Under the pieces are notes generated by a model. That model was not told where the DNA came from, ran no database searches, and worked only from the letters and a program-made list of their open reading frames with translations. DNA of 64,000 nt, taken from the NCBI GenBank assembly GCA_045530815.1, contig JAZSCU010000024.1, positions 65-64,064 of the forward strand. The letters are read 5' to 3'. How positions within the stretch are numbered: position 1 is the first letter of the stretch; each line of letters begins with the position of its first letter. Source of the stretch: Candidatus Nanosyncoccus sp. Lineage in GTDB: Bacteria > Patescibacteriota > Saccharimonadia > Saccharimonadales > Saccharimonadaceae. Of this stretch, positions 1,421-61,954 are shown piece after piece. The position numbers and the translations under genes were made by a program.

Positions 1421-1527
1421 TAAAACTGCCCGATAAAAATTACAACAGTCACGGGCGAGTAGCCGGTACTGAAATACCGGGACGAGCCCGCCTGAGCTGT
1501 TGTAATTTTTATGCGGCGCAAGTTTTA
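1421..1527. repeat. Rod-shaped imperfect palindrome between convergent genes (probably also a bidirectional terminator)
   Basis: Perfect 14-bp stem AAAAATTACAACAG (1435-1448)/CTGTTGTAATTTTT (1497-1510); inner CCGGTA/TACCGG and CGGGC/GCCCG; outer TAAAACT/AGTTTTA. Confidence 0.8.
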
Positions 1528-1546
1528 GCGTTAAAAAAATTTATTA

Positions 1547-2005
1547 TTAATTAACCTTGCTTATTATCAATTTTCTTTCACGCCCTTCCCCCTCCGAGTG
1601 TGTTTCGATATCTGAATAATCCACCGCCACCTTATGTACGATCCTTCTATCAGCCGCATTAAGATTTATTTCCATTGGTTCTCCGGTGCGTCGCACTTTC
1701 TCAATCCACCCCTCCGCTTTTTCGGTGATTCTATCTGCACGTTGTTTTTTATAGTTTGCTACATCAACATTTACTCGTGTCACCTCTGCCTCTTTTGAGA
1801 CTAGCGCCATTGATACAATATGTTGCAAAGCTCTAAGGTTGTCCGCATTTCGTCCAATCAAAAGTGAATTCAAAGATGTTGATGGTACTGATAATTGAAT
1901 TACCTCGTCGTCAATCGTCGAAGTCACTGCCACATTAATTCCAAAAAAACTCAGCAGGTCTTCCAAATATTTTTCGGCAAACCTAATTGATTCATCTTTA
2001 TTCAT
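1547..2005 (-). CDS. jag: Jag/KhpB RNA-binding protein (KH + R3H), short form
   Basis: LLIGRNADNLRALQH KH motif, RRIVH R3H motif; follows yidC. Confidence 0.88.
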   Translation of the reverse strand: MNKDESIRFAEKYLEDLLSFFGINVAVTSTIDDEVIQLSVPSTSLNSLLIGRNADNLRALQHIVSMALVSKEAEVTRVNVDVANYKKQRADRITEKAEGWIEKVRRTGEPMEINLNAADRRIVHKVAVDYSDIETHSEGEGRERKLIISKVN

Positions 2006-2009
2006 ATTA

Positions 2010-3119
2010 TTATCTCCTTTTCTTTTTATTATCTTTTGCGGAGATACGAGTTATTTTTGTTCCTGTTTTTTTATTTTTTACCACCTCAGCTTCTTGAATC
2101 TTATTAAGTTCCTTCAAAACCGCCTTATCAGTCATCGCATCAATCTCCGAATCAACCTTCTTTAATACAATTCTCTGCTGAATAACTGTGATAATATTAC
2201 TTAAGAAATAATAAAATGCCAATGCCCCGTTAAGGTTAAACATGATAAAGAACATCATGAGTGGCATCATAAACGACATCTGCCCAGTCGCAAACCCTGC
2301 AACCTCGGAATCATCAATCTCTTTACCATCTTTAGCATCCTTAATAAGCTCACGGAATTTCTTTTTCTTCTCGGATTTTCCAGACGGCATCTGCTGCTTG
2401 GTTGCAAAGTACTGTACTACCGAAGCCATAATCGCACACATTAATATAAACAATGCACTCCAAGAAAATCTGCTAGAAAATACTTCACTAGCCTTTACAT
2501 CTAACCTTATCACTCCAAATAACATAGGATAAAAATCATATTTTGTTTTTTCTTCTGCCGGAATATCTTCATTCGTAAGATCAGCTAAATATATTTTTTG
2601 TTTCTCTTCTAAATTTCTAATCTCCGATCCTTCATAAGCAACAATTTCGTATGCTCGGTTTGTTAAATTATCTGTCGGCATCGGTGTAGCAATTACCCTA
2701 ATTGCTGAAAAAATTGCAATAAAGATAGGAAGTTGTATAATTAAAGTAATAATAGAAGCAAATGGTTTTACATTATATCTCTTATAGAGATCCATTGTTT
2801 GTAGAGATTCTAATTGTTTGTTTCCTTTGCAATTTTTCTTAATCTGCGTCAATTCTGGCTGTAATTTTCGCATTAATTTAGTTTGATTTAATTGTCTCTT
2901 AGTAAGAGGCCACATACATAGTTTTACTAGTATTGTAAATATAATAATAGCAAGACCAAAATCATGTACGAGATTAAATATTACAAACAAAATATTTACA
3001 ATCGGGCGCACAATAATCATATCAATAAAATTAAATGGGCTCCCTGTCGCAATTGAACCAGCCACAAAAATAGCTAAAATTCCAAGATATATATATTTTT
3101 TCACACTCTTTTTATCCAT
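2010..3119 (-). CDS. yidC: Membrane protein insertase YidC/Oxa1
   Basis: FGLAIIIFTILVKLCMWPL, LQPEL, QLPIF, LAFYYFLSNII..IQQ; rnpA-yidC-jag order. Confidence 0.93.
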   Translation of the reverse strand: MDKKSVKKYIYLGILAIFVAGSIATGSPFNFIDMIIVRPIVNILFVIFNLVHDFGLAIIIFTILVKLCMWPLTKRQLNQTKLMRKLQPELTQIKKNCKGNKQLESLQTMDLYKRYNVKPFASIITLIIQLPIFIAIFSAIRVIATPMPTDNLTNRAYEIVAYEGSEIRNLEEKQKIYLADLTNEDIPAEEKTKYDFYPMLFGVIRLDVKASEVFSSRFSWSALFILMCAIMASVVQYFATKQQMPSGKSEKKKKFRELIKDAKDGKEIDDSEVAGFATGQMSFMMPLMMFFIMFNLNGALAFYYFLSNIITVIQQRIVLKKVDSEIDAMTDKAVLKELNKIQEAEVVKNKKTGTKITRISAKDNKKKRR

Positions 3120-3168
3120 TCATCTAATTATACCACACCAAATATATAACTCCAAACACCTACTCTTT

Positions 3169-3510
3169 TTAAGATATTTGACTTTCCTTTACTAATTTAC
3201 CTACCATCTTTGTAAGCTCAGTAAAATCCATCTTCATCACGTCCTTAGAATAAATAACAAAAATATAATCTGTTTTTTTAGGGATACTATCAATATTAAG
3301 CCTCAGTATTTCATAAACTCTTCTTCTGATTCGATTTCTCCCTACTGCAGATTTTTCAACTTTTTTTGACACCACCACTGCCATCCGTGTAAAACCTTTA
3401 TTATTCGGTGTAAAAACAAGTGACATCTTCGAAGCCCGAATTGTCTTCCCTTTTTGATACACATATCTCACGCCCCCTCGTGAATGAAACCGATATTTTT
3501 TACTAAGCAC
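3169..3510 (-). CDS. rnpA: Ribonuclease P protein component
   Basis: [22 protein letters not shown] motif; GTG start overlaps the rpmH end. Confidence 0.95.
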
Positions 3511-3640
3511 TGAGTCTTGCCCGCCCCTTAATACGGCGACGTGCTAAAACCTTTCGCCCATTTCTTGTCGCGTTTCTTTTCATGAAACCATGTTCAACTT
3601 TGCGTTGTTTCTTATGTGGCTGATACGTCCTCTTTGGCAT
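3503..3640 (-). CDS. rpmH: 50S ribosomal protein L34 (45 aa, not in the ORF track)
   Basis: Hand translation [45 protein letters not shown]; divergent from dnaA. Confidence 0.96.
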
Positions 3641-3697
3641 AAAATATTATTCCTTAAACTTTATTTTTTTACAAATTCTTTATATAGTATACCTCAT

Positions 3698-3825
3698 TTT
3701 TCCACAATTTTCAAGCAGTTTTCCACAATATTTTTAGGGGTTAGTTATTTTCTGTGGAAAACTCCGCCTCTAATTTCAGATTTACATATTACAACATATT
3801 ATTTCCACAAAAAACCTGTGGAAAA
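3698..3825. promoter_or_regulatory. DnaA-box cluster upstream of dnaA (oriC-like or autoregulatory)
   Basis: TTTTCCACA at 3698 and 3719, TGTGGAAAA at 3753 and 3817, ATTTCCACA at 3801. Confidence 0.8.
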
Positions 3826-3870
3826 CTTTCATCTTCGTGCTATAATTAAGAAAAGGAGGCAACACTAAAA

Positions 3871-5229
3871 ATGTACGACGTATGGCAAAACGCCCTAGCT
3901 GAAATCGAGCAAAAAATTTCCCCAGCCAATTTTTCCACTTGGTTTCAAAACACTTCCCTTGTTTCTGCTGAACAAGACCACATTATTATTAGTGTTAAAA
4001 ATACTTTTTACGTCAAACAACTCAAAAACAGATATTTAGATATAATCAAAACTGCCCTTATCAATAATAATTTAAACCCTAAAGAAATTGAATTTGTCGT
4101 CCAAAGTAACAACAAAACTAAACTCCGCCCCCGCGAAGTCACCATTACTAGCCCCGAAATAAAAAAACACACCAATAAGTTTAGATCTTCCCTAGAATCT
4201 AATCATAACGAGACAGGACTCAACCAAAAGTATACTCTTGATAATTTTATTATCGGCTCCAATAATGATTTAGCAGTTTCCGCAGCTAAAAGCATTATTG
4301 ACAACCCTGGCTCCAAATATAACCCCTTCTTTCTTTATGGTGGACCAGGTCTTGGTAAAACCCACCTTGTTCAAGCTATTGGTAATGAACTGCTCAAAAA
4401 GGATCCTAATCTTAAAGTTTTTTACACTCCAATCTCACACTTTTATTCAGATTTTATTGATTCGGTAAAACTAGGTAAAGGAAAAGAATTTAATCTTAAA
4501 TTTCGTAAGTTGGATGTCCTTATTATTGATGATTTTCAGTTTATAGTTAATAAAGAAAAATCCCAAGAAGAATTTTTTAATATTTTTAATGACCTCTATC
4601 AATTAAATAAACAAATAATTGTTACCTCAGACCGGCTCCCAAGCCAAATTAAAACCGTTGATGAACGTCTAGCTTCACGTCTTACAATGGGTGGCGCTTT
4701 TGACCTCCAACTCCCCAAATTTGAAGACAAATGTGCAATTTTGCGCGCTAAAGCCGAAATCATGGGTGCAGAAATTGAACCAGAGGCTATAGAATATATC
4801 GCCGAAAACGTCACTACTAATATTCGCGACCTCGAAGGTGAATTTTCTACTATTCTCCTCATGTCTGAAGTTCGCGGCCTTACTCCATTAGAACTTATCG
4901 AAAACGGCTCCGTATCGGTTAATAAAACATCCAAACTCCGCCCTGTTTCCCCTAAACAGGTAGTTGAAAAAGTCGCTAAATACTATGATCTTTCAGTTAA
5001 AGAAATGTGTGGTAAATCTCGTGTTTCTCATATTAAAACCGCCCGTCAAATCGCTATGTTTCTCTTATCAAAAGAACTTCATCTAAGTACTAATAAAATA
5101 GCCCTTGAAGTAGGTGTAAAAGATCATACCACTGTAATGCATGGTGTTAAAAAGATCGAAAAAGACCTTAAATTAAATTTCATTCTTCGCGACCAAATCG
5201 AAGAAATCAAGGAGAAAATTTATGGTTAA
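3871..5229 (+). CDS. dnaA: Chromosomal replication initiator DnaA
   Basis: YNPFFLYGGPGLGKTHL Walker A, LIIDDFQ, RLASR, KDHTTVMH; AGGAGG SD. Confidence 0.98.
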   Translation: MYDVWQNALAEIEQKISPANFSTWFQNTSLVSAEQDHIIISVKNTFYVKQLKNRYLDIIKTALINNNLNPKEIEFVVQSNNKTKLRPREVTITSPEIKKHTNKFRSSLESNHNETGLNQKYTLDNFIIGSNNDLAVSAAKSIIDNPGSKYNPFFLYGGPGLGKTHLVQAIGNELLKKDPNLKVFYTPISHFYSDFIDSVKLGKGKEFNLKFRKLDVLIIDDFQFIVNKEKSQEEFFNIFNDLYQLNKQIIVTSDRLPSQIKTVDERLASRLTMGGAFDLQLPKFEDKCAILRAKAEIMGAEIEPEAIEYIAENVTTNIRDLEGEFSTILLMSEVRGLTPLELIENGSVSVNKTSKLRPVSPKQVVEKVAKYYDLSVKEMCGKSRVSHIKTARQIAMFLLSKELHLSTNKIALEVGVKDHTTVMHGVKKIEKDLKLNFILRDQIEEIKEKIYG

Positions 5230-20430: not shown

Positions 20431-23148
20431 ATGAAATTCGCAAGTAGTTATGAACCGGGGGAATATGAAACTGACATTTATGCCGCTTGGGAAGCAGCTG
20501 GTGTTTTTAACCCTAACATTCCTACTGTCCCTGTTGATGTCGATAGCGACGGCCACGATGATCGAGAAGAAAAATCAAAATGCTTTTCTATTGTTATGCC
20601 GCCGCCAAACGCTAATGGTGATTTACATATCGGCCATGGTTTAACTGTAGCTCTTGAAGATTCCCTTACCCGTTATTACCGTCTAAAAGGCGCCTCCTCC
20701 TGGTATATTCCGGGCGCTGATCATGCCGGGTTTGAAACCTGGGTAGTTTACGAAAGAGAGCTCGAAAAACACGGCCATACTCGCTTCGAGTTTGATCGCA
20801 ATGAACTTTATGCTAGGGTCTGGGATTTTGTTGCAGAGCAACGTGGTAATATGGAACTCCAACTCCGCGCCTTGGGTGCTTCCTGTGCTTGGGACGATCT
20901 TACCTTTACTCTTGACGAAAACGTCATCGACCGCGTTTATACCACCTTTGAAAAAATGTGGAACGATGGCCTTATTTACAGAGGTAAAAAACTCGTGAAC
21001 TTCTGCCCCAAACACCAAACCGCCTTCGCTGATATCGAGGTTGAACATAAAGACGAAAAAGGTACTCTCTGGGAAATCGCATATGATGACATTATCGTAT
21101 CCACTACAAGACCCGAAACTCTTTTTGGCGACACTGCCGTTGCTGTCAATCCCGAAGATGAGAGGTACAAAGATCGCATCGGCAAAACAGTTCATCTTCC
21201 TCTAACCGATCGCGAAATTCCTATTATTGCTGACGAGCATGCTGATCCCGAGTACGGCACCGGCGCAGTCAAAATCACCCCTGCCCACGATTTTGACGAT
21301 TTTGAAGTGGGCGAGCGCCACAATCTAGAACAAATTCAGGTCATTCAAGAAGACGGCAAAATGATCAATGTTCCCGAAAAATATAACGGTCTTTCTACCG
21401 CCGAATGCCGCAAACAGGTTCTAAAGGATTTGAAAGAACAAGGTCTATTAAAAGGTGAGAAAAAAATCGTTCACTCTGTTGCTCATTGTTATAAATGTGA
21501 TACAGTACTAGAACCCATGCTAAAAGAGCAATGGTTTGTAGATGTCGAAAAACTTGCAAAGACAGCAATCGCGCACCTCGAAGCCAACGAAATACAATTT
21601 TATCCAGAAAATAAGCAAAAAGTCCTAATTAACTATCTAAATAACCTAAGAGATTGGAATATCTCTCGCCAAATTCCTTGGGGTATCGCTATCCCAATGT
21701 TTAAAAAAGCAAATGACGATGCGACAGACGAGCCAGATTGGATTTTTGATCGTCGCACCAACCTAAAAGAAATCGAAAAGAATGGTGTTAAGTATATACG
21801 AGACGAAGATACTTTTGACACTTGGTTTTCGAGTAGTCACTGGCCTATCGTCTGTACTGACTGGTCCGAGGATCACCACACCCCATATTATCCATTGAAT
21901 GTCATGGAAACCGGCGCCGACATTCTCTTTGCTTGGGTTGCCCGTATGATTATGATGGGGCTTTATGTTACAGATGAAGTACCGTTTAAGGAAGTATATC
22001 TTCATGGGCTCGTCCTCGATGAACACGGCAAAAAAATGAGCAAAAGCAAAGGCAACGTTATCAACCCTATGGACCTTGTTGCAAAATACGGTTCCGATGC
22101 GTTTCGTCTCGGTATCTTAAGGGGCCGCTCCGCCGGCATGAATCAAGCCTTTTCCGAAAACTCTGTTATTTCTGGTCGCAACCTCTGTAACAAACTCTGG
22201 AACATCTCCCGCCTCATCCAATCCCTCGTCGATGAAGAGGGCAGTAGTAGCGAATTTGAAAATAGTGCTACTCGAGGGCTTCCGGAGGTTACGACCGAGG
22301 ATGAGGGCGCGAGCCCCGTAACGAGGGGCGCGGGCGACCCGTCCCGAGAGAGCACTATTTCAAATTCGCCATATACAACTCTCAACATGGGCGAAGATTG
22401 GATCTGTCGCGAGATCAACAATTGTCTGTCACAGGTTGAAGACGACATCAAAACCTACCGTTTTGCCGAAGCAGTCGAAACATTGTACCAAACTATTTGG
22501 GATAAATATGCCGACTGGTTCCTAGAGAGTCAAAAAATTTTCCAGAATAAGGAGCTACTGGAGCGTACTCTAGAAACACTTTTGATTGCTCTTCACCCCT
22601 TTGCTCCTTTTGTTACTGAAACTATTTGGCAAAACCTCAGCTGGACCGAAGGCTTCATTATTACCGCTAAATGGCCCGAAAAACTAAAATATGACCCTAT
22701 TTCAGCCGAAAACTTTGAAAACATAAGAACTATCGTTTCTGAGGTTAGAGGCACCCTACAGGCCCTTCCAGGCACCAATAACGCGAAAAAATACACCTTG
22801 TTGTACGACAATGACAGCCTCGTAGAGGATAATTTACTACTTATCAAGACTCTGACAAAGGTCCCTACGATAAATCCTCTCAGTGGCGCCCCTAGAGGTC
22901 TCCGCCTCGCCTTGGCAAATCACGAGCTCTATTTAGATGTTCCTGCCGAAGTTGTAGCCGAATATAAGGAAACACTTACCGACAAAATTCTCTCTGTTGG
23001 GCGCGAGCTAGACGCCTTAAATCTCAGAATGCAAAATCCAAATTATGTCGAAAGAGCCCCTGCTCACCTCGTCAAAGAAACCAAAGATCAGATCAAGGAA
23101 AAAGAATCTCTCATCGATCGCCTAAAACAACAACTAGAATTAATTTAA
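20431..23148 (+). CDS. valS: Valine--tRNA ligase carrying a 40-aa palindrome-encoded insertion
   Basis: PPPNANGDLHIGH, TTRPETL.GDTAVAVNPEDERY, WNISRQ, DTWFSS, KMSKSKGN, C-terminal coiled arm. Confidence 0.97.
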   Translation: MKFASSYEPGEYETDIYAAWEAAGVFNPNIPTVPVDVDSDGHDDREEKSKCFSIVMPPPNANGDLHIGHGLTVALEDSLTRYYRLKGASSWYIPGADHAGFETWVVYERELEKHGHTRFEFDRNELYARVWDFVAEQRGNMELQLRALGASCAWDDLTFTLDENVIDRVYTTFEKMWNDGLIYRGKKLVNFCPKHQTAFADIEVEHKDEKGTLWEIAYDDIIVSTTRPETLFGDTAVAVNPEDERYKDRIGKTVHLPLTDREIPIIADEHADPEYGTGAVKITPAHDFDDFEVGERHNLEQIQVIQEDGKMINVPEKYNGLSTAECRKQVLKDLKEQGLLKGEKKIVHSVAHCYKCDTVLEPMLKEQWFVDVEKLAKTAIAHLEANEIQFYPENKQKVLINYLNNLRDWNISRQIPWGIAIPMFKKANDDATDEPDWIFDRRTNLKEIEKNGVKYIRDEDTFDTWFSSSHWPIVCTDWSEDHHTPYYPLNVMETGADILFAWVARMIMMGLYVTDEVPFKEVYLHGLVLDEHGKKMSKSKGNVINPMDLVAKYGSDAFRLGILRGRSAGMNQAFSENSVISGRNLCNKLWNISRLIQSLVDEEGSSSEFENSATRGLPEVTTEDEGASPVTRGAGDPSRESTISNSPYTTLNMGEDWICREINNCLSQVEDDIKTYRFAEAVETLYQTIWDKYADWFLESQKIFQNKELLERTLETLLIALHPFAPFVTETIWQNLSWTEGFIITAKWPEKLKYDPISAENFENIRTIVSEVRGTLQALPGTNNAKKYTLLYDNDSLVEDNLLLIKTLTKVPTINPLSGAPRGLRLALANHELYLDVPAEVVAEYKETLTDKILSVGRELDALNLRMQNPNYVERAPAHLVKETKDQIKEKESLIDRLKQQLELI
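22250..22369. repeat. 120-bp palindromic element inserted in frame in valS
   Basis: Arms GCGAATTTGAAAATAGTGCT / AGCACTATTTCAAATTCGC (19 bp, one bulged A); GC-rich core with GCCCC/GGGGC hairpin. Confidence 0.88.
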
Positions 23149-23690: not shown

Positions 23691-24410
23691 TCAACCTGCT
23701 TCATACTCCTCATCGCTAATATATGTTCCGCGCAAGTCACTGAACTCCCCTGCGTCGATTTGTCTCCAGTCCCCGGGGCCGCCTTCGTAGTAGGCTCGCA
23801 CGATATTAACTTGGATGATTATGCATCCTTGTTTCTCATCGTACTGTGGTATATCAGCAAGAATATATTGCTCTACGAGCTCAATTACCTCCTTAACACC
23901 GGCCCGGAACCAGAACCCGGAACAGTCTGAGTCATCAACCCATCCATCATCCGAATTGACGATAAAGTCGTCCTCTAGTTCGTCGTCCTGGATACCGTCA
24001 AGATACATAGCGATTTCATCCTCCAAAGTTTCCTTGTCGATCTTTGTAAAGATCCTCAGAGTCGACTCGACACCTTCCTGCATAGGAATGCGCCCCTCCG
24101 TAATACCTTTACGGAGCTCAGTCAATTCATCCCACCATTTCTGGATGATCTCGCAGATCGCCTGGACGTCACCGCTACTATAAGCTTCATTTGTTTTTAT
24201 AATAGTTACTTCTCCTTCCTTAACATCGATATTGATCCCTTTGTTTACATTTTCAAATGCGTATTTCATAGTTCCTTTTCCTCCTTCGTTTTTTACTTCA
24301 CTATTATTGTTTACGACTTCCTTATTAATATTGTTATTCATTGCATTCTCTCCTTTTCTGTTGTTCATCGTGATTTCCATGTTACCTTTTGCTTCTGTAT
24401 TAGTGTTCAT
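23691..24410 (-). CDS. Hypothetical acidic protein with repeated in-frame SD-ATG starts
   Basis: 239-aa ORF, AGGAGG SD, consensus promoter upstream, hairpin near 23570-23602 downstream. Confidence 0.7.
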   Translation of the reverse strand: MNTNTEAKGNMEITMNNRKGENAMNNNINKEVVNNNSEVKNEGGKGTMKYAFENVNKGINIDVKEGEVTIIKTNEAYSSGDVQAICEIIQKWWDELTELRKGITEGRIPMQEGVESTLRIFTKIDKETLEDEIAMYLDGIQDDELEDDFIVNSDDGWVDDSDCSGFWFRAGVKEVIELVEQYILADIPQYDEKQGCIIIQVNIVRAYYEGGPGDWRQIDAGEFSDLRGTYISDEEYEAG

Positions 24411-24745: not shown

Positions 24746-27700
24746 TTAGAAATTTCCTCCTAGCATTAATCTAAGATAGTCTTCTTCCGCGATTCGTCGG
24801 AGCTCTTCTTGGTAAGCACTTTCCCCACCTCTATTACGCGCCTCTGTTAGGCGTCTTTGAATTCTATCTTGCCTTTCCTGCCATGCTCTATATCCCGCCA
24901 AACTTCCAGGGAAACGTTCTTCTATACTATCTATCCCAATTGCTTCATCAGGGAAGTTTCGTTGCATATAATCACTAAATCCTACCCGACCGCGCTCGCC
25001 TGAACCATAGGTTCTAAGGAGTAACGCCTTCTTGTCGCCATCTCCTAAATACAACATGGCATTTCTAATAGCCTTATCTTTACCCAATTCTTCGTAATCC
25101 TGTATATCAACATGTGGGACTCGGGCAATTCGCTGATCATTATTTCGGATTGCATCGAGTTTGGAATAGAGGAATAGGTCTGTAAAATCTTCGTCTTTAT
25201 CTAGGCGCATCACATACATGGCGCTTTCATTATTGAAGCTCTCCATGATAACGCACTGTTTACCGCGGAAATTAAATTTAAAACCAATATATGAGTTTTG
25301 ATTATCGATATTAATATTGGCGAATGGATCATCTGGGTCATAGTCCTCAACCGATTCGCCGGAGAAGCCATCCATAAACCAATCAACCGAGTCTTCTCCT
25401 TCTGGATTATCAAAAGCCCCAGGTATATTGTTTTTGATCCAAAGATACCACTCATTCAACGCCATCACCTTCCTCAAACCAAAATCTTCAGGGGCTCCTT
25501 CGCCCTCGTATGCAGGAATTTCAGGTTTTGGTCTAGGAGGAGTAACACGAGAAGTGTAAGATTCATCAGAAAACGTACCTTCTACCGGCTCTAGACCATA
25601 CCCCTTAATTTTCTCTACCAGTTCTTTCTTATAACGATTAATCAATCTCTTGACGTCATCGTGTGAAAGTGACCTACGAGTCATGTGTGCTAGACCCTCA
25701 TCCAAAGCTTCAGCTTCCTCAGCTGCCTTTCTAGCTTCCTCTCGTTTCTTCTGTATTACATAATCCTTATAAGCTTCGTTGTTGTTTCTAAAACTGCCTA
25801 TCTTATTCTTTAATCCTCGTGGCGTATCTTCATCCGCCCATACACTATGTAGCATAAAATCAAATTTATCTGGATTAGTGACAAAAACGTTTTCGAAATA
25901 CCATTCAGCAGCCGAGCTTTTTTCACCTTTTGTGGCCTGCAAGACACGCATAAACCCATCAAACGCCTTATTGAAGACCTCAGGATCGCTAAAGTCAAGT
26001 CCTATCTCATCTTTATATTGCTTATAGAAGTCAGTTTCAAATATCTTCAGAAAATTATTATCTGGGTCCGAATAAGATGGATCTGTTATCCCAGTAGCCA
26101 AGCACTCGAGAAGAGCACTGCGGGCTGACTCCATCTTACCAGTAAATTCTACCTCTCTATCTGGATACAACATCTTAAGGACGTCGGCCGGAGGTAAGAA
26201 TTCTTCATAAGCGGCAAGCTCTTCAGGTACTTTTATAAGATCTGTAGAGGACCCAAAGGTCCATTTAACTTTCTCTCTATTCATCATCTCTTCAAGTAAT
26301 TCTTGTCGTCTGTCCTCATTAGCCCTATACCCAATGAGAGTACGTCCCAGATCAAAATTAGCTCCTTCTACTGCAGCTTTCTTGCGTTCCTCTATGGCGG
26401 AGACAAGTTCAGGATTGTCTTTTTCGGCCTCTGCGATAGTAGCTAGCATTTCACGTCGTTTTTCTTCTGCTGCGCTTGACACATCATCTGACAAATATCT
26501 AATTTCACCATTAATGTTTCTAACCCCAAAACGTGAACGCTCCCGGTCGAAGACCAAGCCATTTTCCGATGGAGCATCCATCATTTCAGCGACCAACTCT
26601 TTAAGAGCAAAGACTTCTGGGATGACGTTATTTTCATCTTCTTTATAACCGTTTGCTAGGATTTGCCTTCTTAGGCTTTGGTCATTAACGTCTAATCCTA
26701 GTTCTTGAATTTTTTCGACGATCTGTTCTCGGCTCAAATCACCAGCCTTAAAGAAGAGAGTACCCTCTTTAACACCTTTTGCAACCAAAGATTCTAATAC
26801 GAATTTTTCTTTTTCAGGCGTTAGTTCTTCAACCGTTTCCTGTAGTTCGCCACTTAAAAGTTCGGTCTGAGCACGATTAAGGATTGCTTGAGCTACTATA
26901 GGCGTTTCGTATGTATATTCAAAATTATATCTATGCCTATAAGAGTTCCAGCCACTATGCTTATTTTTAACTCTGAGCTCAGTACTTAGCGAACCAGCTA
27001 AACCTTCAGCTAATTCTTCTTTGCTAGGAGCGTCCATAGAGCCCTGCTCCATTTTGCGTTGGCGAGCTTCCCTGTAAGCGTCCTCCGCTGTAACGTCACC
27101 TTTTCTTAATGCTTCTTGTCTTTTCCCGAGATATTCAACTACTAAGCGCGGTATATCTTCTTTCATCCTTTCCATTCTGTATTTGGTGAACTTAGTATCA
27201 GGGAACATTTCTTGAGTAATTTTTTTAATCTCCTCAGGCGTTACAAACTTTGCTACCGCCTCGACACGTGCCTCATAAGCATCTTTTTCCTTACGCTCTT
27301 CTTCCTCACGTGCTCGTTTTTGTTCTTCTCTTTCTAACCTTGATTGCTTATCTTGCACATCTTCATAGTGCCTTGGCCTTCTCGTTTTTTCTCCGTTCTT
27401 TTGCCAATCTTTATATGCTGGTGTAGGTGCCCATACGTGTACTTTGTCATCATCCGGATCACGCATCAGTTTATAATCTTCCTTTTCGAAAGTTTCTGCG
27501 TCAAGCGGAGCACCCAATTCTTCAGCCTCTTTAAACGTATCTTCATGCTCTTTCCAGAATGGGTCAAGCTCACTCTTTTTTTCATCGTCAGCAGCTATAC
27601 CCACTGACCCCAACTTCCCTGCTAAACGGCTTTCATCTTCCATTTTTGCATCTTCAGCAGCTAAATCCGTTAGCCCTTGCAACTCCGCTAAACGCCTTTC

Positions 27701-27973
27701 ATAATCTTCTTGTGACTCACCATCTAGCTGAGGGTAGGTTTCTTCGCTAATGGTGCTATCATCTGTTGCCCCACGAGGCTCTTCTGCGAGATTGTCGAAC
27801 CCTCTCTCGATAACTTTGGCCTGCTGGTCCTCCGGCAAATCTTGCCCCAAATAAACAGTTTCACCCTTATCATTTGTTGTCGAGTGTGATGCCATTTGTT
27901 CTGCAATTGCTTGCCATTCTTTGCCGTTGCCCTGTTCGTCGCCTTGTGTATTTTTGTGATCTTCAGTGTTCAT
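24746..27973 (-). CDS. Large Glu/Asp/Lys-rich hypothetical protein (1075 aa)
   Basis: Long uninterrupted ORF with AAAGGAG SD; no motif recognised. Confidence 0.8.
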   Translation of the reverse strand: MNTEDHKNTQGDEQGNGKEWQAIAEQMASHSTTNDKGETVYLGQDLPEDQQAKVIERGFDNLAEEPRGATDDSTISEETYPQLDGESQEDYERRLAELQGLTDLAAEDAKMEDESRLAGKLGSVGIAADDEKKSELDPFWKEHEDTFKEAEELGAPLDAETFEKEDYKLMRDPDDDKVHVWAPTPAYKDWQKNGEKTRRPRHYEDVQDKQSRLEREEQKRAREEEERKEKDAYEARVEAVAKFVTPEEIKKITQEMFPDTKFTKYRMERMKEDIPRLVVEYLGKRQEALRKGDVTAEDAYREARQRKMEQGSMDAPSKEELAEGLAGSLSTELRVKNKHSGWNSYRHRYNFEYTYETPIVAQAILNRAQTELLSGELQETVEELTPEKEKFVLESLVAKGVKEGTLFFKAGDLSREQIVEKIQELGLDVNDQSLRRQILANGYKEDENNVIPEVFALKELVAEMMDAPSENGLVFDRERSRFGVRNINGEIRYLSDDVSSAAEEKRREMLATIAEAEKDNPELVSAIEERKKAAVEGANFDLGRTLIGYRANEDRRQELLEEMMNREKVKWTFGSSTDLIKVPEELAAYEEFLPPADVLKMLYPDREVEFTGKMESARSALLECLATGITDPSYSDPDNNFLKIFETDFYKQYKDEIGLDFSDPEVFNKAFDGFMRVLQATKGEKSSAAEWYFENVFVTNPDKFDFMLHSVWADEDTPRGLKNKIGSFRNNNEAYKDYVIQKKREEARKAAEEAEALDEGLAHMTRRSLSHDDVKRLINRYKKELVEKIKGYGLEPVEGTFSDESYTSRVTPPRPKPEIPAYEGEGAPEDFGLRKVMALNEWYLWIKNNIPGAFDNPEGEDSVDWFMDGFSGESVEDYDPDDPFANINIDNQNSYIGFKFNFRGKQCVIMESFNNESAMYVMRLDKDEDFTDLFLYSKLDAIRNNDQRIARVPHVDIQDYEELGKDKAIRNAMLYLGDGDKKALLLRTYGSGERGRVGFSDYMQRNFPDEAIGIDSIEERFPGSLAGYRAWQERQDRIQRRLTEARNRGGESAYQEELRRIAEEDYLRLMLGGNF

Positions 27974-30276: not shown

Positions 30277-30570
30277 ACTAGCTGTCAATTGTAACTTAAA
30301 AACGGTAACTCTTTTTTATCAAAACTAAACCGCCCTAGGCGGAAAACCTTAATTCATCGATGAAATTGAAAAAGTAACAAGAAGTTAAGCACAAAAAAAG
30401 AGATTACTAGCACCGTGGAATTTTCCACAGAGAGAAAGGAAGGAAAAACTGGGAGGAACATTTTAGTTTTTAGACCGTGTAGGTGTTTTATAGGTTTAAC
30501 CTTTCGGAAGTTTATCTAAAATTGTCCCCTTCTTCTCTAGTACATTTATATCCGCTTCGGCGGATTTTTT
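30277..30570 (+). ncRNA. Candidate structured ncRNA (about 290 nt)
   Basis: TGGTATAAT at 30262; long-range stems; ATCCGC-TTCG-GCGGAT terminator + T tract; no ORF. Confidence 0.5.
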
Positions 30571-36705: not shown

Positions 36706-37797
36706 ATGAAAAGTGTAAAGCAAATCGTAGTCGAACAAACTGACCGTGGTTACGGACATTTACTTGAGGACAAACTCGATGAATGGGCTTGTCATCAGAT
36801 CAAGCTGTCAAGTTCTTATCGCAACGGAAGTTTGGCTCCGGTATCATCTACAACGGATGGCGGCAGCCGAAAACGAGCGATCATGGAACGCGTTAAAATC
36901 ACAATGGCGCATAGCTCCATGTCTGAAAAAGAGGTGGTTTGCCGCCTCATCGAGCTTGAGAGACGCCTGGAAGATCCGGGCCTCTTAGAGAATTTCGAGT
37001 ATTTTGACATTCCGAGCTCGGAATTCATGTTGTCATTCTACTTCACACTGTGGGATGGCAGAATTGCCGAAGTCATGGATTTTCTCCATGATTATGGGAA
37101 AGATCTGAGCGGTGTCGCCCAGCATATTCCCGAAGGAGATGTCTGGCGCAAGATGTCTTACTTCGAGGGCATGAACATCGACAAAAGAAAACAGGCAAGA
37201 GATGTGGTGGAGTTTATGAACTTTCATCATGTCAAAAAAGCCACCTCTTTTGGCGGTGGAAACATTCCCGAAAGATTCTATGGGATGCCCGAGGATCTGG
37301 AGTTGACAGTCTTTGATAATGGCCCTGTGAGCTCACTCCCGGAATTGTTTCCGGACGAGAAGCAGCGGAAAAGGGTGAATTACATTCACGAATTATTATC
37401 CGCGGCTCCCCGTTACCCAGAATTAATTAGTACACAGGAACTGGTATGGATGCACGGCGTCTCTATGTACCTGGATGAAACATCGCTGATTGGCGCAATC
37501 GTCTGCGCTCACGCTCTGCTTCAGCCAGATGGATATATGTGCTATGACTACCTGCTGAACAACCAATCCTTGCAGAGAGCAGTTGTTACACAGGGATGGC
37601 CATATAATCCAGAAAAACCGATGACCATTTTCGAACGGCCTGAGACAGCCATTGAGTATGGCTTAAACATCATTAAAGCCGTCAACAAAAAGCTGGAAGG
37701 AAGATCCTTCATGGATGTAGTTGATGTCAAAGTCAATATTCTGGATCCATGGGGACCAACCAGTGTGTATTTTATACTGCAAAAACACGGAGAATAG
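36706..37797 (+). CDS. Hypothetical protein with a possible degenerate class I SAM-methyltransferase fold
   Basis: ATSFGGG, LTVFD, WMHGVSMYL, LLQPDGYMCYD spaced like class I MTase motifs; AAGGAGGT SD. Confidence 0.45.
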   Translation: MKSVKQIVVEQTDRGYGHLLEDKLDEWACHQIKLSSSYRNGSLAPVSSTTDGGSRKRAIMERVKITMAHSSMSEKEVVCRLIELERRLEDPGLLENFEYFDIPSSEFMLSFYFTLWDGRIAEVMDFLHDYGKDLSGVAQHIPEGDVWRKMSYFEGMNIDKRKQARDVVEFMNFHHVKKATSFGGGNIPERFYGMPEDLELTVFDNGPVSSLPELFPDEKQRKRVNYIHELLSAAPRYPELISTQELVWMHGVSMYLDETSLIGAIVCAHALLQPDGYMCYDYLLNNQSLQRAVVTQGWPYNPEKPMTIFERPETAIEYGLNIIKAVNKKLEGRSFMDVVDVKVNILDPWGPTSVYFILQKHGE

Positions 37798-40283: not shown

Positions 40284-41453
40284 CTAGTCAATCTCCACCC
40301 TTGGATAGATATTAAGAGAATATGGATCCGTTGGCTCTACCCCAGATTTTATTTCAAAGAAAGCTGCCGCCGCCACCATCGCACCATTGTCTCCAGATAA
40401 TTTTAGCTCAGGAAAGTATACTTTTACATTTTTATTAAATTTTTCTATCATTTTCTTTCGCAACTCTTTGTTAGCGCTTACTCCTCCTGCTACTACAATT
40501 GACTTAGTATCAGGGTATTTTTCTAGTGCTAACTTCATTTTTTCGCACAAAATCTCTATCGCGGTTTTTTGGAATGAAGCCGCAAAATCACAAACTTGCT
40601 TCTTTGATAGTAATTCTTTTAGCTGATGGGAAGGATAAGAAATTGGCACCCCCACCTCTTTTTGCACTGCTCGAAGCACCGCTGTTTTTAGTCCCGAAAA
40701 CGAAAAATCTAGCCCTGGGATTTTTGGGTGCGGGAGCCGATACATATTTGCGTCACCAGAGAGATCATAGTTGCCACTAGCTGCAGCTGCAATCGATGGT
40801 CCTCCCGGATACGGCAATCCTAGAATTTTTGCTACTTTGTCAAAACACTCCCCCACCGCATCATCCCTTGTCGTCCCCACAATCTTAAACTGGTTATGTG
40901 CCGGCATATAAAGTATTTGGGTATGCCCACCCGAAACTACCAGTGCCAAAATCGGAAATTTCGGACTACAATTATTCATGTCCAGCTCGAGGGGATTCGG
41001 AGTCTGGCAAGGCGAGGACGGGCGTCGATCGCCCATGCCGATGGGTCGACCGGACGCGGCTCGAGAGTGAGCATGAATATTGTCTCCGGCTAACCAGTTT
41101 GCATAAACATGTGATTTAAGATGATGCACCGCATAAAGAGGCTTATTGTATAAAATTGCCAAAGTTCTCGCCGTCAAAGTACCAATTAAAAGGGAACCAA
41201 GAAGCCCCGGTGCATGCGTCACCGCAATTGCATCAATATCGTTCCACGAACAGCTAGCATCCTCTAGGGCCTTTTTTACGACGGGCATCATCACCTCTAG
41301 GTGGCTTCTCGCTGCCACCTCTGGTATTACCCCACCATATTCTGCAAAAATATCAATTTGCGACACCACAACATTAGACAAAATTTTTACTCCATCCTCT
41401 ACTACCGAGGCGGCCGTCTCGTCACAACTAGTCTCAATCCCCAATATTTTCAT
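40284..41453 (-). CDS. tsaD: tRNA N6-threonylcarbamoyltransferase TsaD with a palindrome-encoded insertion of about 42 aa
   Basis: ILGIETSCDET, GGVIPEVAARSH, HHLKSH, VSGGHT, DDAVGECFDKVA..LGLPYPGGP, FSFSGLKT, GDNGAMVA. Confidence 0.96.
   Translation of the reverse strand: MKILGIETSCDETAASVVEDGVKILSNVVVSQIDIFAEYGGVIPEVAARSHLEVMMPVVKKALEDASCSWNDIDAIAVTHAPGLLGSLLIGTLTARTLAILYNKPLYAVHHLKSHVYANWLAGDNIHAHSRAASGRPIGMGDRRPSSPCQTPNPLELDMNNCSPKFPILALVVSGGHTQILYMPAHNQFKIVGTTRDDAVGECFDKVAKILGLPYPGGPSIAAAASGNYDLSGDANMYRLPHPKIPGLDFSFSGLKTAVLRAVQKEVGVPISYPSHQLKELLSKKQVCDFAASFQKTAIEILCEKMKLALEKYPDTKSIVVAGGVSANKELRKKMIEKFNKNVKVYFPELKLSGDNGAMVAAAAFFEIKSGVEPTDPYSLNIYPRVEID
40962..41088. repeat. Palindromic element (about 126 bp) inserted in frame in tsaD
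   Basis: Arms CGGACTACAATTATTCATG / CATGAATATTGTCTCCG; inner CTCGAG..CTCGAG and CCCAT/ATGGG; core resembles the valS element. Confidence 0.82.
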
Positions 41454-42450: not shown

Positions 42451-42686
42451 AAGCAAAAGTCTTCCGTCCTCCTTGCTCGAAATATCATGAGCAAACTCCC
42501 TATATTCTCTCGTTTCGTCGTCCGGTCGAACCTACGGTTCTCATCCTACCAGTTTTTATTATAGAAAATACCCGAACAAATGCTCGGGTATTTTCTATGG
42601 CTAGGCTGGCAGGATGACGGCTTCGCTTCGCTACGCCTAGACCTCGCTTCGCTCGGTGCGAACCTACGGTTCTCATCCTACCAGCT
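42451..42686 (-). repeat. tRNA-Gln-linked repeat array (two structured units + hairpin)
   Basis: 18-bp copy of the tRNA 3' end TGGCTAGGCTGGCAGGAT at 42598; 26-bp direct repeat CGAACCTACGGTTCTCATCCTACCAG at 42527 and 42659. Confidence 0.88.
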
Positions 42687-42691
42687 TAAGT

Positions 42692-42739
42692 ATATGAATT
42701 AAAATAAGACTCCTTCGGAGTCTTCTTCTAATTCATATG
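42692..42739 (-). terminator. Hairpin directly after tRNA-Gln
   Basis: ATATGAATT..AAGACTCC-TTCG-GAGTCTT..AATTCATAT. Confidence 0.7.
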
Positions 42740-42812
42740 GCTAGGCTGGCAGGATTCGAACCTGCGAATGACGGGACCAAAACCCGTTGCCTTACCACTT
42801 GGCGACAGCCTA
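42738..42812 (-). tRNA. tRNA-Gln(TTG)
   Basis: TAGGCTG/CAGCCTA acceptor, ACGGG-TTTTGGT-CCCGT, TTCGAAT, GCCA. Confidence 0.96.
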
Positions 42813-45099: not shown

Positions 45100-45160
45100 T
45101 ATATCTTTATTGTACCACATTCTAAAGAGAACCACAAGCACGATGCGAAGTGGCTAATTT

Positions 45161-45335
45161 TCTGAACTCTGCTATTTATTTACATTGAGCGAGCCCGAGA
45201 AGATTTTTCTAAATTTTAGGAAATTAGCTCGTGCGAACCGCATAGGCAGACGTGAGACACGAGTAATTTCCGTTAAAAAATTTAGAAAAATCCTTCTCGG
45301 CGCGAAACGAAGCGCAAATAAATAGTAGAGTTAGA
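45161..45335. repeat. Rod-shaped palindromic element (about 175 bp), homolog of 30813-30985
   Basis: Stems AACTCTGCTATTTATTT/AAATAAATAGTAGAGTT and GATTTTTCTAAATTTT/AAAATTTAGAAAAATC. Confidence 0.88.
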
Positions 45336-45404
45336 GATTTAAACACTATGAGTCATATTGATTATTTCTCTGTTATGTGCTACAATAAAAACATAATATC
45401 AGCT

Positions 45405-59567: not shown

Positions 59568-59570
59568 AAA

Positions 59571-60299
59571 TTATAGTACTTTCTCCAAAAATTCTTTTAC
59601 CCGAGGAGTCTTTGGGTTCTCAAAAAATTCTTTTGGGGTTCCTTCTTCGATTATCTGCCCCTTGTCGATAAAGACAATTCTCGAAGCGATCTCTCGTGCA
59701 AAACCCATCTCATGAGTCACTATCATAATTGTCATTCCAGCATCGGCTACTTCACGAATTAAGGACAAAACATCTCCGATAGACTCTGGGTCCAGGGCCG
59801 AGGTTGGTTCGTCAAACAATAATACTTTAGGATCCATCATCATCGCTCTAACTATCGCAATCCTTTGTTTCTGGCCACCAGAAAGACTCGCCGGATACGC
59901 CTCTGCCTTAGAGGCCAAATTAATATGTTCAAGCAATTTTTTGGCCTTTTTCTCGGCCTCACTTTCTGTCATTAATTTCAAAACAGTAGGCGCCAAAGTT
60001 AGATTTTTCATCACCGTTAAATTATTTATTAAGTTAAAGTGCTGAAACACCATACCAATTTCTTGGCGCATTTTTTGGATATTTTTATCCGTAATCAAAG
60101 TACCATTAAAATATATTTCGCCACATGTCGGCTCTTCCATCTTATTGATACACCTTAAAAACGTAGATTTACCAGACCCACTAGGCCCCAGCACCACCAC
60201 TTTTTCTCCTGCCGTAAGTTCAAAATTAATACCTTTTAATACTTTATTTTTTCCATATTCCTTTTTTAAGTCATGAATCTTCAATATTTTTTGTTCCAT
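59571..60299 (-). CDS. Polar amino-acid ABC transporter ATPase (GlnQ-like)
   Basis: GPSGSGKST, MVFQHFNL, LSGGQKQRIAI, FDEPTSALDPE, VTHEMGFA. Confidence 0.93.
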   Translation of the reverse strand: MEQKILKIHDLKKEYGKNKVLKGINFELTAGEKVVVLGPSGSGKSTFLRCINKMEEPTCGEIYFNGTLITDKNIQKMRQEIGMVFQHFNLINNLTVMKNLTLAPTVLKLMTESEAEKKAKKLLEHINLASKAEAYPASLSGGQKQRIAIVRAMMMDPKVLLFDEPTSALDPESIGDVLSLIREVADAGMTIMIVTHEMGFAREIASRIVFIDKGQIIEEGTPKEFFENPKTPRVKEFLEKVL

Positions 60300-60306
60300 C
60301 TTCCTC

Positions 60307-61005
60307 CTATGCCCTTAACTCGCTTCTGCGCAGTCGTTTTTCAATTCGCTTAATAATAAATGTGATCAAATATACTACGGCTAGGTAGAACAATGCCGCC
60401 ACAAACATTGGCACAATATAGCTCGCCATATTTTGCCCAGAGCCGATATCTTTAGCCGCCATGTTAAGATCATATAAACCTACCATGCTGACGATTGCTG
60501 TCTCTTTAATTACAGTGATAATCTCATTCCCAAGCGCCGGAATAATATTTTTTATAGCTTGGGGTGCAATTATTTTTCTAAAAATCGTGAATTGCGACAA
60601 TCCTAATGCCATCCCAGCCTCTTTTTGCCCAGGATCCACCGACTGTATCCCGCTCCTAATTACTTCTGCCGTGTAAGCTGCTGAATTAAAACCGAAAGCC
60701 AAAATTGCGATAATTATTTGCGGGAATCCCCTGATTGCAAAAATCACAAAGAACATAATAAAAAGTTGTAATGCCATCGGTGTCCCACGGATGATCGTCG
60801 TATAAACTCTAGTTATCGCTTTTGGGATGATTGTCCATTTTGTTCTTTTTGCGGTATCGATTAACGCAATTATCGTCCCTAGTATTAGCCCAATAATAAT
60901 TGCAAAAAACGATATTTGCATTGTTAATAAAAATCCGTGCAACAGTGACTCTATATATTGTGGTGTTGTAAATAGCTCAACTGTTTTATCGAAAAAATTA
61001 TTCAT
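60307..61005 (-). CDS. Polar amino-acid ABC transporter permease
   Basis: IRGTPMALQ, AYTAEVIRSGI.SVDPGQ.EA..ALGL, KETAIV. Confidence 0.92.
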   Translation of the reverse strand: MNNFFDKTVELFTTPQYIESLLHGFLLTMQISFFAIIIGLILGTIIALIDTAKRTKWTIIPKAITRVYTTIIRGTPMALQLFIMFFVIFAIRGFPQIIIAILAFGFNSAAYTAEVIRSGIQSVDPGQKEAGMALGLSQFTIFRKIIAPQAIKNIIPALGNEIITVIKETAIVSMVGLYDLNMAAKDIGSGQNMASYIVPMFVAALFYLAVVYLITFIIKRIEKRLRRSELRA

Positions 61006-61870
61006 TTGTTAGTCCCATATATTTTAATATTAACTTATTCATTTCAGTTTCGCCAGCCTCATTTGGTTTTAACATCTCTTCTAACACTTCATTAAATGCA
61101 TTTAAAAGTTCCGTACGCTCTTTATTTACCGCTATAGCATATGACTCCTCTACTGGATAATCCTCGTTTGCCTCGTCCCCCTGGTAGTATAACGGCAAAG
61201 CCTTAAGTTCGGGATTTTTTTCTATAATAAATTTAGCTGCCAATTCATCTGCAATTGCATAGTCAATAATATGTGCACCAATCGCATCTGCTGCCAGCTG
61301 ATAAGAGTCTAGCCCTTTTATACTTGTATTAGTATCTTTTAATACACCATCTTTTATTTCGTTTGAGGTGAAAATATACCCAGTACTACCCGTTTGCGTA
61401 CCTAAAATTTTTCCGTTTAGCGCTTCCCACACTATGTGACCGTCGCGTTCCTCCGGCGCATTGTCATCCTTAAAAATTACATACTGCACGGACGTATAAT
61501 AGGGAATACTAAAATCAACTTTCTCCGCCCTTGCCGGTGTAATGGTTAAACCCGCTGCCCCCGCATCCGCAATTACTCCATTAGCGACATTGTCGATGAT
61601 CATATCAAATTCTACATTTTTTATATCAATTTTTGCATTTAATTTTTCTGCTACCTTATTAATAATCTCTACGTCTACCCCCACAATTTTCCGGTTATCA
61701 TAGTATTCAAATGGTGCGAAAAAAGCATTTGTCTCCACTATATAGTCATAAGTTTCAATACTTCTCGCAAAGAAAAAAGTGCTCACCGCCACAACTAGAA
61801 TCATCAGCCCCACTATCACTCTCTCGGCTGTAAACAGTCTCGCCAGCTTGTTCTGTGACCTTTTAACCAT
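60998..61870 (-). CDS. Polar amino-acid ABC substrate-binding protein
   Basis: FFAPFEY, GVDVEI, AGLTITPARAEKVDFSIPYY, GTQTGSTG. Confidence 0.92.
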   Translation of the reverse strand: MVKRSQNKLARLFTAERVIVGLMILVVAVSTFFFARSIETYDYIVETNAFFAPFEYYDNRKIVGVDVEIINKVAEKLNAKIDIKNVEFDMIIDNVANGVIADAGAAGLTITPARAEKVDFSIPYYTSVQYVIFKDDNAPEERDGHIVWEALNGKILGTQTGSTGYIFTSNEIKDGVLKDTNTSIKGLDSYQLAADAIGAHIIDYAIADELAAKFIIEKNPELKALPLYYQGDEANEDYPVEESYAIAVNKERTELLNAFNEVLEEMLKPNEAGETEMNKLILKYMGLTNE

Positions 61871-61919
61871 AAGTTAATTATAGCACAAATAAGACCCTAA
61901 AGGGTCTTCTTCGTTTCAG

Positions 61920-61954
61920 TGGTGACCTTTGGTAGCGAGTCGCACCGAAGGTCC
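61920..61954 (-). repeat. Degenerate copy of the tRNA-Arg(CCT) 3' half forming a CCA-ended hairpin
   Basis: Minus strand GACCTTCGGTGCGACTCGCTACCAAAGGTC-ACCA versus tRNA GTGCGTTCGACTCGCACCGGGGTCACCA. Confidence 0.7.

Follow-up and report, generated by a model that had tools for sequence, protein, structure and literature searches.

Rickettsia palindromic elements (RPEs) are palindromes of about 100–150 bp that resemble transposable elements of the miniature inverted-repeat kind (MITEs), occur in many in-frame copies in unrelated conserved genes, and are translated as an extra peptide (PMC10969869). They are present in some orthologues and absent from others, and their host has a reduced, host-dependent genome (PMC10969869). 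A second described system is RtT of E. coli, which is a processed RNA (bioRxiv 10.1101/2024.07.17.603846). We analysed a 64-kb stretch of DNA (the window), for which an original prediction had placed GC-rich palindromes at eight loci into one selfish superfamily. A hairpin-forming element is indeed present at every one of these loci. However, the palindromes separated into three classes in all tests that we ran, and this is the reading that we consider probable: class A, an RPE-like palindrome inside the open reading frames (ORFs) of valS and tsaD; class B, RtT-like modules downstream of tRNA genes; and class C, a separate family of long intergenic rods.

The window was compared with 159 related loci (cited as L followed by a number) and with the E. 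coli rttR locus, and three covariance models were built. R1 represents the ORF element and was trained on 12 copies, including both inserts of the window. R2 was trained on the two intergenic rods at 30790 and 45161, and R3 was built from three near-identical tRNA-linked units of the type called QB below. The minimum free energies (MFE) of folds were compared with those of shuffled sequences and are reported as z-scores. On sequence comparison, the source of the window is a rumen Saccharibacterium close to Candidatus Nanosyncoccus. Its valyl-tRNA synthetase (ValRS) is 82% identical to that of a Ca. Nanosyncoccus metagenome-assembled genome (MAG), which bears out the predicted Saccharibacteria-type host, and 64–71% identical to those of other Saccharibacteria. 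Near-identical DNA is present in sheep and bovine gut metagenome runs.

Palindromes within valS and tsaD

The two class A elements of the window are as follows.
22240–22368, reversed relative to the family reference: element in valS (ORF 20431–23148, +); R1 match at 22254–22365 (−), 81.6 bits, training member
40962–41085: element in tsaD (ORF 40284–41453, −), insertion site 1; R1 match at 40970–41082 (−), 89.9 bits, training member

Both ORFs are intact despite their inserts. The two elements are homologous, as had been predicted; both are training members of R1, and the independent support comes from their placement in a multi-genome alignment (A4), in which 12 copies align over a core of about 90 nt. 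The whole element is about 110 nt long and GC-rich, and its core has the order TCTCGGGG-CGCGTCCGGCCGGCCCATCGCCATGGGCGGCCGGCGC-TAATCCTCGCGCTGCCGCGCTCCGGAA-CCCC. The outer arms are AT-rich, site-specific, and complementary within each copy, and they are not conserved between copies (pairs 4–10 with 184–190 of A4; site 1 versus site 3 of the tsaD gene in L093). The consensus fold of A4 has 27 pairs, with compensatory changes on both sides at 18 of them. For the single inserts, the fold is strong in valS (22233–22372, z −5.3/−5.4) and weaker in tsaD (40956–41090, z −1.95 on the plus strand and −3.1 on the minus strand).

Beyond the window, R1 identified 37 copies in contigs of related Saccharibacteria (about 1.3 Mb), i.e. 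35 in 857 kb of tsaD-neighbour contigs and two in the valS set. Eleven of these are training members and 26 lie beyond the training set; together with those of the window, the total is 39 copies. No copies were found in 55 loci (about 0.9 Mb) of other phyla, and in the window itself, with filters off, R1 retrieved only the copies in valS and tsaD. The new matches reside in valS, tsaD, a P-type ATPase gene, and other long ORFs, and 11 of the 12 non-training copies that were checked lie inside long ORFs. Many rumen metagenome contigs contain the core with other palindromic arms. Copies are found in both orientations and in at least three reading frames, two in one orientation and the third in the other, and one element is translated as ARPAGPSPWAAGA, AASGRPIGMGDRR or, reversed, FRSAAARGLAPAAHGDGPAGR. 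The reading of the element in several frames argues against a selected protein module.

The insertion sites are polymorphic. An alignment of ValRS proteins revealed a hypervariable insertion point with inserts of differing length in the window, L022, L002, L004, and L005, and in three of these (window, L022, and L004) the insert is a strong rod. The site is empty in relatives at about 51% identity (L007–L021 and L025). In a near-identical metagenome strain, half of the valS insert is replaced, while the flanks are about 99% identical. In metagenome run X10, the depth at the valS core (excess at 22271–22355) is 150–375, compared with 7–56 at the left flank and 0–21 at the right flank.

For TsaD, 20 related contigs revealed three separate insertion sites, each of them empty in several orthologues. 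The window insert lies at site 1 and aligns with copies in L081, L082, L085, L093, L115, L119, and L111; site 1 is empty in L086, L089, L096, L124, and L138; sites 2 and 3 are filled in some orthologues only. Two copies can be present in one gene, i.e. direct copies with 92% identity at sites 1 and 3 of L093 and inverted copies at sites 2 and 3 of L115, and recurring peptide motifs are found at different sites. Between filled and empty tsaD sites, about 15 nt are replaced, and in each of the two filled-versus-empty comparisons one outer arm is similar to the target sequence. The original prediction had tied a mobile palindrome to further copies beyond the window and to empty sites in orthologues; the former are the 37 R1 copies, and the latter were found for valS as well as for tsaD. 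Likewise, its comparison of the ORF palindrome with RPEs, as a dispersed, polymorphic, and frame-preserving repeat, is supported by the further copies, the empty sites, and the open frames.

Two observations on tsaD are added here. The window gene has a short AT-rich extra segment, KKMIEKFNKNVKV, at site 3 (40400–40460), where relatives hold full elements; it could represent leftover outer arms of a lost element. The orthologue in L081 (4695–5819) has an in-frame stop at codon 7 (MKILGI*TSC), for which a sequencing error, a pseudogene or recoding are possible explanations.

Class A is dispersed and polymorphic, it is tolerated in several frames and orientations, i.e. independently of the frame, and its hairpin is maintained. 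It is probably a lineage-specific, non-autonomous selfish DNA palindrome that preserves the frame and behaves like an RPE. Such an element would colonise tolerant sites of conserved proteins and would survive only where the frame stays open, so that it would be read as a filler peptide in whatever frame it landed. Its turnover would be fast, via re-insertion or via recombination among copies, and it may move as a DNA hairpin, either by means of a trans-acting enzyme or by template switching.

The likeness to RPEs comprises a repeated palindrome with a conserved core, location in unrelated ORFs, the kept frame, and empty sites among orthologues. In contrast to RPEs, class A comes from another phylum, and it is likened to them by its features, not by the sequences of RPE-1 to RPE-10, to which no relationship is expected. 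It has a GC-rich core in an AT-rich genome and AT-rich, site-specific outer arms, it strikes one gene (tsaD) at three sites and sometimes twice per allele, and nearly all checked copies are intragenic. Furthermore, it is read in at least three frames or orientations, whereas RPEs have one conserved peptide per family. With classical MITEs (Correia, ERIC, RUP, BOX) and with the repetitive extragenic palindromic (REP) elements and their mosaic arrays (BIMEs), class A shares that it is short, non-autonomous, hairpin-forming, and dispersed, and some of these repeats (ERIC, Correia) are also found within transcripts or ORFs. Its terminal inverted repeats, however, are not conserved between copies, no clear target-site duplication is visible at the tsaD sites compared, and no HUH/Y1, IS200 or other transposase was found among 40 window ORFs compared with Pfam. 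REPs are about 20–40 nt long, extragenic, and often clustered, with a RAYT gene flanked by them, whereas class A elements are about 110 nt long and intragenic. The predicted link to the REP/RAYT system was not supported.

To our knowledge, Rickettsia is the only parallel for a selfish palindrome within essential proteins. If the result is confirmed, Saccharibacteria would be a second, unrelated host-dependent lineage with a reduced genome that harbours such an element. A full-text search of one paper collection yielded no paper that links Rickettsia palindromic elements with Saccharibacteria or the candidate phyla radiation (CPR) and no description of such elements there; an RPE-like in-frame palindrome family of Saccharibacteria has apparently not been described so far. 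The result also matters in practice. Where marker genes such as valS and tsaD contain hypervariable inserts, alignments, phylogenies, and assemblies are disturbed, with contigs breaking at the repeats, and the inserts can serve as fast strain markers.

RtT-like modules downstream of tRNA genes

The tRNA-linked units of the window and their anchors are listed below.
11276–11360 (+): tRNA-Tyr(GTA), anchor of unit Y
11361–11397 (+): terminator-like hairpin between tRNA-Tyr and Y, part of an 87-nt palindrome that also includes the 3′ end of the tRNA and Y's 5′ arm
11398–11538 (+): unit Y, long type, read from sequence; fold z −2.4
17009–17059 (−): unit S2, minimal type, a T-arm-like hairpin with GAGCGAAGCGA (plus strand) that precedes an exact copy of the 3′ end of tRNA-Ser, CCA included; z −3.4
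17084–17138 (−): unit S1, minimal type, in which a hairpin precedes an exact copy of the 3′ end of tRNA-Ser, CCA included; z −2.8
17163–17253 (−): tRNA-Ser(CGA), anchor of S1 and S2
42451–42553 (−): unit QA, long type, with a core as in Y and a 5′ arm that matches tRNA-Gln, whereas a 3′ arm is not recognisable; no stable fold alone (z +0.3)
42561–42598 (−): terminator-like hairpin between QB and QA
42599–42685 (−): unit QB, closest to E. coli RtT; z −4.1 (for 42599–42697)
42694–42737 (−): terminator-like hairpin between tRNA-Gln and QB
42738–42812 (−): tRNA-Gln(TTG), anchor of QB and QA
61920–61964 (−): minimal unit of tRNA-Arg(CCT), in which a hairpin precedes a degenerate copy (…AAAGGTCACCA) of the 3′ end of tRNA-Arg; z −4.1
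61997–62072 (−): tRNA-Arg(CCT), anchor of this unit
63546–63568 (−): possible remnant, seen by eye, about 60 nt downstream of tRNA-Gly(CCC), the 3′ end of which it copies partially and in antisense

These class B units are probably RtT-like modules, in which the 5′ arm is antisense to the 3′ end of the tRNA, the core reads GGTTCG…GAGCGAAGCGAG, and the tRNA end is copied on the 3′ side. Exact 16-nt copies of tRNA 3′ ends are present twice after tRNA-Ser(CGA) and once after tRNA-Gln, and degenerate copies follow tRNA-Tyr and tRNA-Arg(CCT). In unit Y, the 5′ arm is antisense to the 3′ end of tRNA-Tyr and is followed by GCGAACC-GCA-GGTTCGC, the core GACGAAGCGAGAGAA with a hairpin, a stretch of GAGGAGGAACGGAAGAC, a further hairpin as an insertion, and a 3′ arm that is degenerate (GACCTACTATTATGACA). 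Y and QA have in common a 5′ arm specific to their own tRNA, GGTTCG, and a GAAGCGAGAGAA core, and they are 89% identical over 91 nt, in agreement with the predicted homology of the Tyr/Gln pair. In QB, the outer stem is 13 bp long, the core reads GAGAACC-GTA-GGTTCG CACCGAGCGAAGCGAGG, and the tRNA-Gln end, CCA included, is copied on the 3′ side.

The design of the E. coli rttR/tyrT locus had been missed when the tRNA units were assigned to a single palindrome class. There, a 5′ arm that is complementary to the T-stem and the acceptor 3′ strand of the tRNA is followed by GAGAACC-loop-GGTTCG, the motif GAGCGAAAGCGAGAGAA, and a hairpin; then come segments rich in GCGAAGC and, on the 3′ side, a copy of the tRNA end that includes CCA. 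All of these features are present in QB, which in a MAFFT alignment aligns directly with three E. coli tyrT units. At gathering thresholds, Rfam detected only tRNAs in the window; below threshold, the RtT family (RF00391) matched QB at 42598–42697 (−) with 37.4 bits (threshold 45, E 1.3e-3 in a whole-window scan). In general, class B shares with E. coli RtT the location downstream of a tRNA gene whose orientation it shares, the tRNA 3′-end copy with CCA at its end, the pairing of the 5′ arm with the 3′ arm, the internal words GGATGAGAACC, GGTTCG, CGAGCGAAGCGAG, and GCGAAGC, and the occurrence in tandem with varying unit number.

There are also differences. Only QB scores with the Rfam model, and it does so below the threshold. 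Class B units lie beside Gln, Ser, Tyr, and Arg tRNAs and not beside tyrT, they are shorter (45–140 nt versus 178 bp for the E. coli tyrT repeats), and they have minimal and long subtypes. A terminator-like hairpin separates each unit from its tRNA, the core motif can have either orientation to the tRNA (S1, S2, and a unit in L121 versus QB), and a tpr-like ORF is lacking.

The class B design is seen again behind Gln and Ser tRNAs, both in many related contigs and in Saccharibacteria that are more distant. Copies of tRNA 3′ ends downstream of tRNAs are also present in L005, L013, L081, L085, L089, L093, L111, L120, L121, and L138, and QB has orthologues in L093 and L120. Most of the weaker full-length R3 matches with a checkable tRNA context follow a Ser or Gln tRNA gene at a distance of 37–122 nt and are oriented like it. 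In an alignment of R3 matches (A11), 83.5% of the cells pair, compared with about 37% when the partners are slid.

The units are gained and lost among strains. The S units are missing downstream of the same tRNA-Ser in L022, and the module of QB and terminator (140 nt) is missing from the major allele of runs X1 and X3, where 20 nt at the joint match either side. This stretch is the direct repeat of the tRNA end, which shows for QB that modules are gained or lost by recombination between repeats. Each module after a tRNA gene probably consists of a terminator and an RtT-like unit, whose arms are antisense and sense copies of the 3′ end of its own tRNA, and the direct repeat of 18–20 nt allows modules to come and go. 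Read-through transcripts, if made, may adopt an acceptor/T-arm-like helix that ends in a 3′ CCA tail, as E. coli RtT RNA does. Remnants of integrase att sites were considered as an origin of the tRNA-end copies and set aside, because E. coli and Saccharibacteria have the internal core in conserved form and there is no integrase in the vicinity.

Judging from the RtT-like units, the tyrT repeats of E. coli, about which little is understood, appear to belong to a much wider tRNA-linked repeat design. Since the unit number varies between strains via the tRNA-end repeat, the function would be testable in cultivable Saccharibacteria.

Several observations concern the surroundings of tRNA genes. Terminator hairpins of one type (…AAGAAGACYC-loop-GRGTCTTATTTT…) follow tRNA genes in the window (11361–11397, 42694–42737, and 61885–61912) and in L085 (2655–2692), L089 (153–196), and L093 (7010–7047). 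As this module is common to different tRNAs and genomes, it may be a terminator-like repeat in its own right. In an Elusimicrobium MAG (L037, 9100–9384, −), a tandem duplicate that comprises the tRNA 3′ end, the terminator, and about 190 nt lies behind tRNA-Ser(GGA), indicating that tRNA-end repeats are not confined to Enterobacteria and Saccharibacteria. A protein with RhuM-family and Fic/DOC domains (15718–16764, −) directly adjoins the tRNA-Arg/Pro/Ser cluster of the window and is possibly a remnant of a mobile or toxin-related island.

Long intergenic rods

Three long rods lie between genes of the window.
1394–1553: rod between the convergent lytR-family (+) and jag/khpB (−) genes, with arms that overlap both stop codons
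30790–31008: rod of 219 nt in the divergent gap between a 68-aa ORF (30570–30776, −) and femAB (31380, +); R2 190.5 bits, training member
45161–45336: rod of 176 nt in the divergent gap between the ftsK start (45141, −) and rpsF (+); R2 198.4 bits, training member; z −8.8/−8.9

The rods at 30790 (MFE −72.9/−77.8 kcal/mol, z −9.1/−10.5) and 45161 had been predicted to be homologous, and they indeed align end to end (30822/45166), over a length of about 165 nt and with changes in the stem that compensate each other (alignment A5). In 1.26 Mb of related loci, R2 found only its two training rods, and exact word searches for rod motifs in 160 loci gave no matches. At the site of rod 30790, L022 has only a 45-nt terminator-like hairpin, and in one metagenome contig 30780–31027 is replaced by 38 nt; other contigs share only the rod core and have different flanks. 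Similarly, metagenome contigs break inside rod 45161, and others share only 45183–45283. Class C is thus dispersed, with an alternative allele in metagenomes, and we consider it probable that it is a separate, dispersed, and polymorphic family of long intergenic rods.

The rod at 1394 folds as strongly (1412–1535, z −8.7/−9.2), but it has no R1 or R2 match and is not demonstrably related to the other rods. It has weak similarity to a rod at 13644–13869 of L003, with a shared word of 17 nt only. An identity of the rods as 6S, SRP or tmRNA genes or as leaders was dropped, as there was no Rfam signal.

The words CCACAAG and AACCACAAGCA flank the two homologous rods, to the right of rod 30790 (31009–31050) and to the left of rod 45161 (45126–45141). 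TCCACAA-related words are present at the orthologous positions 13570–13610 of L022 and 3600–3650 of L004; they could be a binding-site or promoter motif or be DnaA-box-like. The 68-aa ORF (MAYIRKFKTTSGATGVQVCYKEG…) that adjoins rod 30790 is conserved at this place in L022 and has no Pfam match; its N-terminus may resemble the start of some IS-family transposases.

One superfamily, three classes, or no mobility

The original prediction had connected the loci by recurring short words. The positions given for these words were all correct except for one GCGAACC, which is at 30884 and not at 30874, and most occurrences of GCGAACC, GAGCGAAGCGA, and GCGAAGCG fall within elements. Nevertheless, the link is weak, as their counts in the window are at or barely above chance. 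GCGAACC is present seven times versus 4.2 expected (15 of 100 shuffles reach seven), and GAGCGAAGCGA, with up to one mismatch, three times versus 0.85 expected (eight of 100 shuffles), so that neither is significantly enriched. GCGAAGCG is found five times versus 1.3 expected (one of 100 shuffles), with four of the five inside elements.

A single superfamily at all eight loci, spread by one HUH enzyme (RAYT- or IS200-like) that recognises a GC-rich hairpin, would account for the enrichment of GCGAAGCG and for the GCGAAGCG-type purine loops in rods, RtT-like units, and E. coli RtT. It would also agree with the AT-rich outer arms around GC-rich cores in all three classes and with the similarity of the S1 core CTCGCGCTGACGCGCTCGAATC to the class A 3′ domain CTCGCGCTGCCGCGCTCCGGAATC, S1 being the third-best R1 match in the window. 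This match is at the same time the best one across classes, and its score is 11.5 bits with an E value of 1.2. With filters off, R1 misses the rods, Y, QA, QB, the E. coli RtT units, and the RtT-like units of L005, L013, L017, L085, and L093, R2 is confined to its own two rods, and no HUH enzyme is encoded among the scanned ORFs. A blastn-short comparison of all elements with the window and the loci yielded nothing beyond the Y/QA and tRNA-end matches. No model crosses the classes, and we regard the superfamily as unlikely; the models are narrow, as R3 misses other subtypes within class B, and the classes could still have a distant common origin. Doubtful to a similar degree is a fold-back spread of class A, in which the GC-rich core would enter a site and build its outer stem by inverted copying of the adjacent target. 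This would explain the unique yet perfectly matched AT-rich arms and the lack of a target-site duplication. The core may in this case descend from tRNA-linked RtT-like units, as suggested by the T-arm-like CCGGAATCCCC and the CTCGCGCTGNCGCGCTC motif shared with S1, and tRNA 3′-end repeats, from E. coli RtT to the CPR, would then be the source of a protein-invading selfish element.

Alternatively, the palindromes might not be mobile and might instead result from lineage-specific mutation, with hairpins such as terminators and T-arm DNA growing outward by intrastrand template switching or quasipalindrome correction and the same process keeping the arms alike. Several results are compatible with such growth, i.e. 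the outer arms that are unique at each site yet always complementary (pairs 4–10 with 184–190 of A4), the similarity of one arm to the target in two filled-versus-empty comparisons, the single palindromes of 87–95 nt that tRNA 3′ ends form with terminators and antisense copies around the terminator loop, and the short hairpin of L022 in place of the 219-nt rod. In addition, mismatches of the G:U type and the A:C type are about equally frequent in A4 (roughly ten each, manual tally), which suggests no strand preference, as expected of a constraint at the DNA level. Growth in place leaves unexplained that the same 90-nt core is present at three tsaD sites and in unrelated genes, in both orientations and with 85–92% identity, and it does not account for the excess depth of the core in metagenomes. 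As a full explanation it is quite improbable, but it could act alongside dispersal and shape the arms after insertion. Selection at the RNA level appears even less likely. The rods would then be non-coding RNAs, mRNA leaders or terminators, the tRNA-linked units processed small RNAs that mimic the acceptor/T arm of a tRNA, and the ORF inserts stabilising or regulatory mRNA hairpins. Compensatory changes are found in all three classes, each RtT-like unit lies between two terminator-like hairpins and is oriented like its tRNA, E. coli RtT is processed as mentioned above (bioRxiv 10.1101/2024.07.17.603846), and rod 1394 spans the ends of two convergent genes. However, class A has both orientations relative to the mRNA, it is polymorphic for presence or absence and replaced at the strain level, and the rods have no Rfam match.

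For the separation into a selfish class A, RtT-like class B, and class C rods, which we prefer, a number of results have to be set on the other side of the balance. Only two class A and two class C copies are present within the window, and the excess depth of the valS core may partly come from copies in many related species and not from many copies per genome. No transposase, RAYT, IS200/HUH protein or integrase was found in the Pfam scan of 40 window ORFs, and no clear target-site duplication was seen at filled versus empty tsaD sites, for which alleles from different species were compared. The RtT model of Rfam gave no score for Y and for the units of L005, L013, and L017, and R3, a three-sequence model, scored the E. 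coli unit E1 at the right place and strand with only 7.8 bits (E 8.6). The putative assignment to RtT rests on one sub-threshold Rfam match and the shared architecture, and the units are therefore named RtT-like and not members of RF00391. Finally, judged from DNA sequences, roles at the RNA level are not separable here from behaviour at the DNA level.

Further features of the window are its base composition of about 40% G+C, its eight tRNA genes, and several housekeeping genes. Three large ORFs of 1075, 239, and 363 aa (24746–27973, −; 23691–24410, −; 36706–37797, +) have no Pfam match at E ≤ 0.01. The valS–femAB distance is about 8 kb in the window versus about 1.2 kb in L022. The genes yidC, jag/khpB, dnaA, dnaN, and recF are typical of an origin region, and the gap upstream of dnaA (3510–3871) contains inverted TTTTCCACA-like words (AGTTTTCCACAATATTTTT / AAAAAACCTGTGGAAAACT; e.g. 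3717–3735 / 3809–3827) that are DnaA-box-like. Together, these words and genes suggest that the window spans a replication origin.

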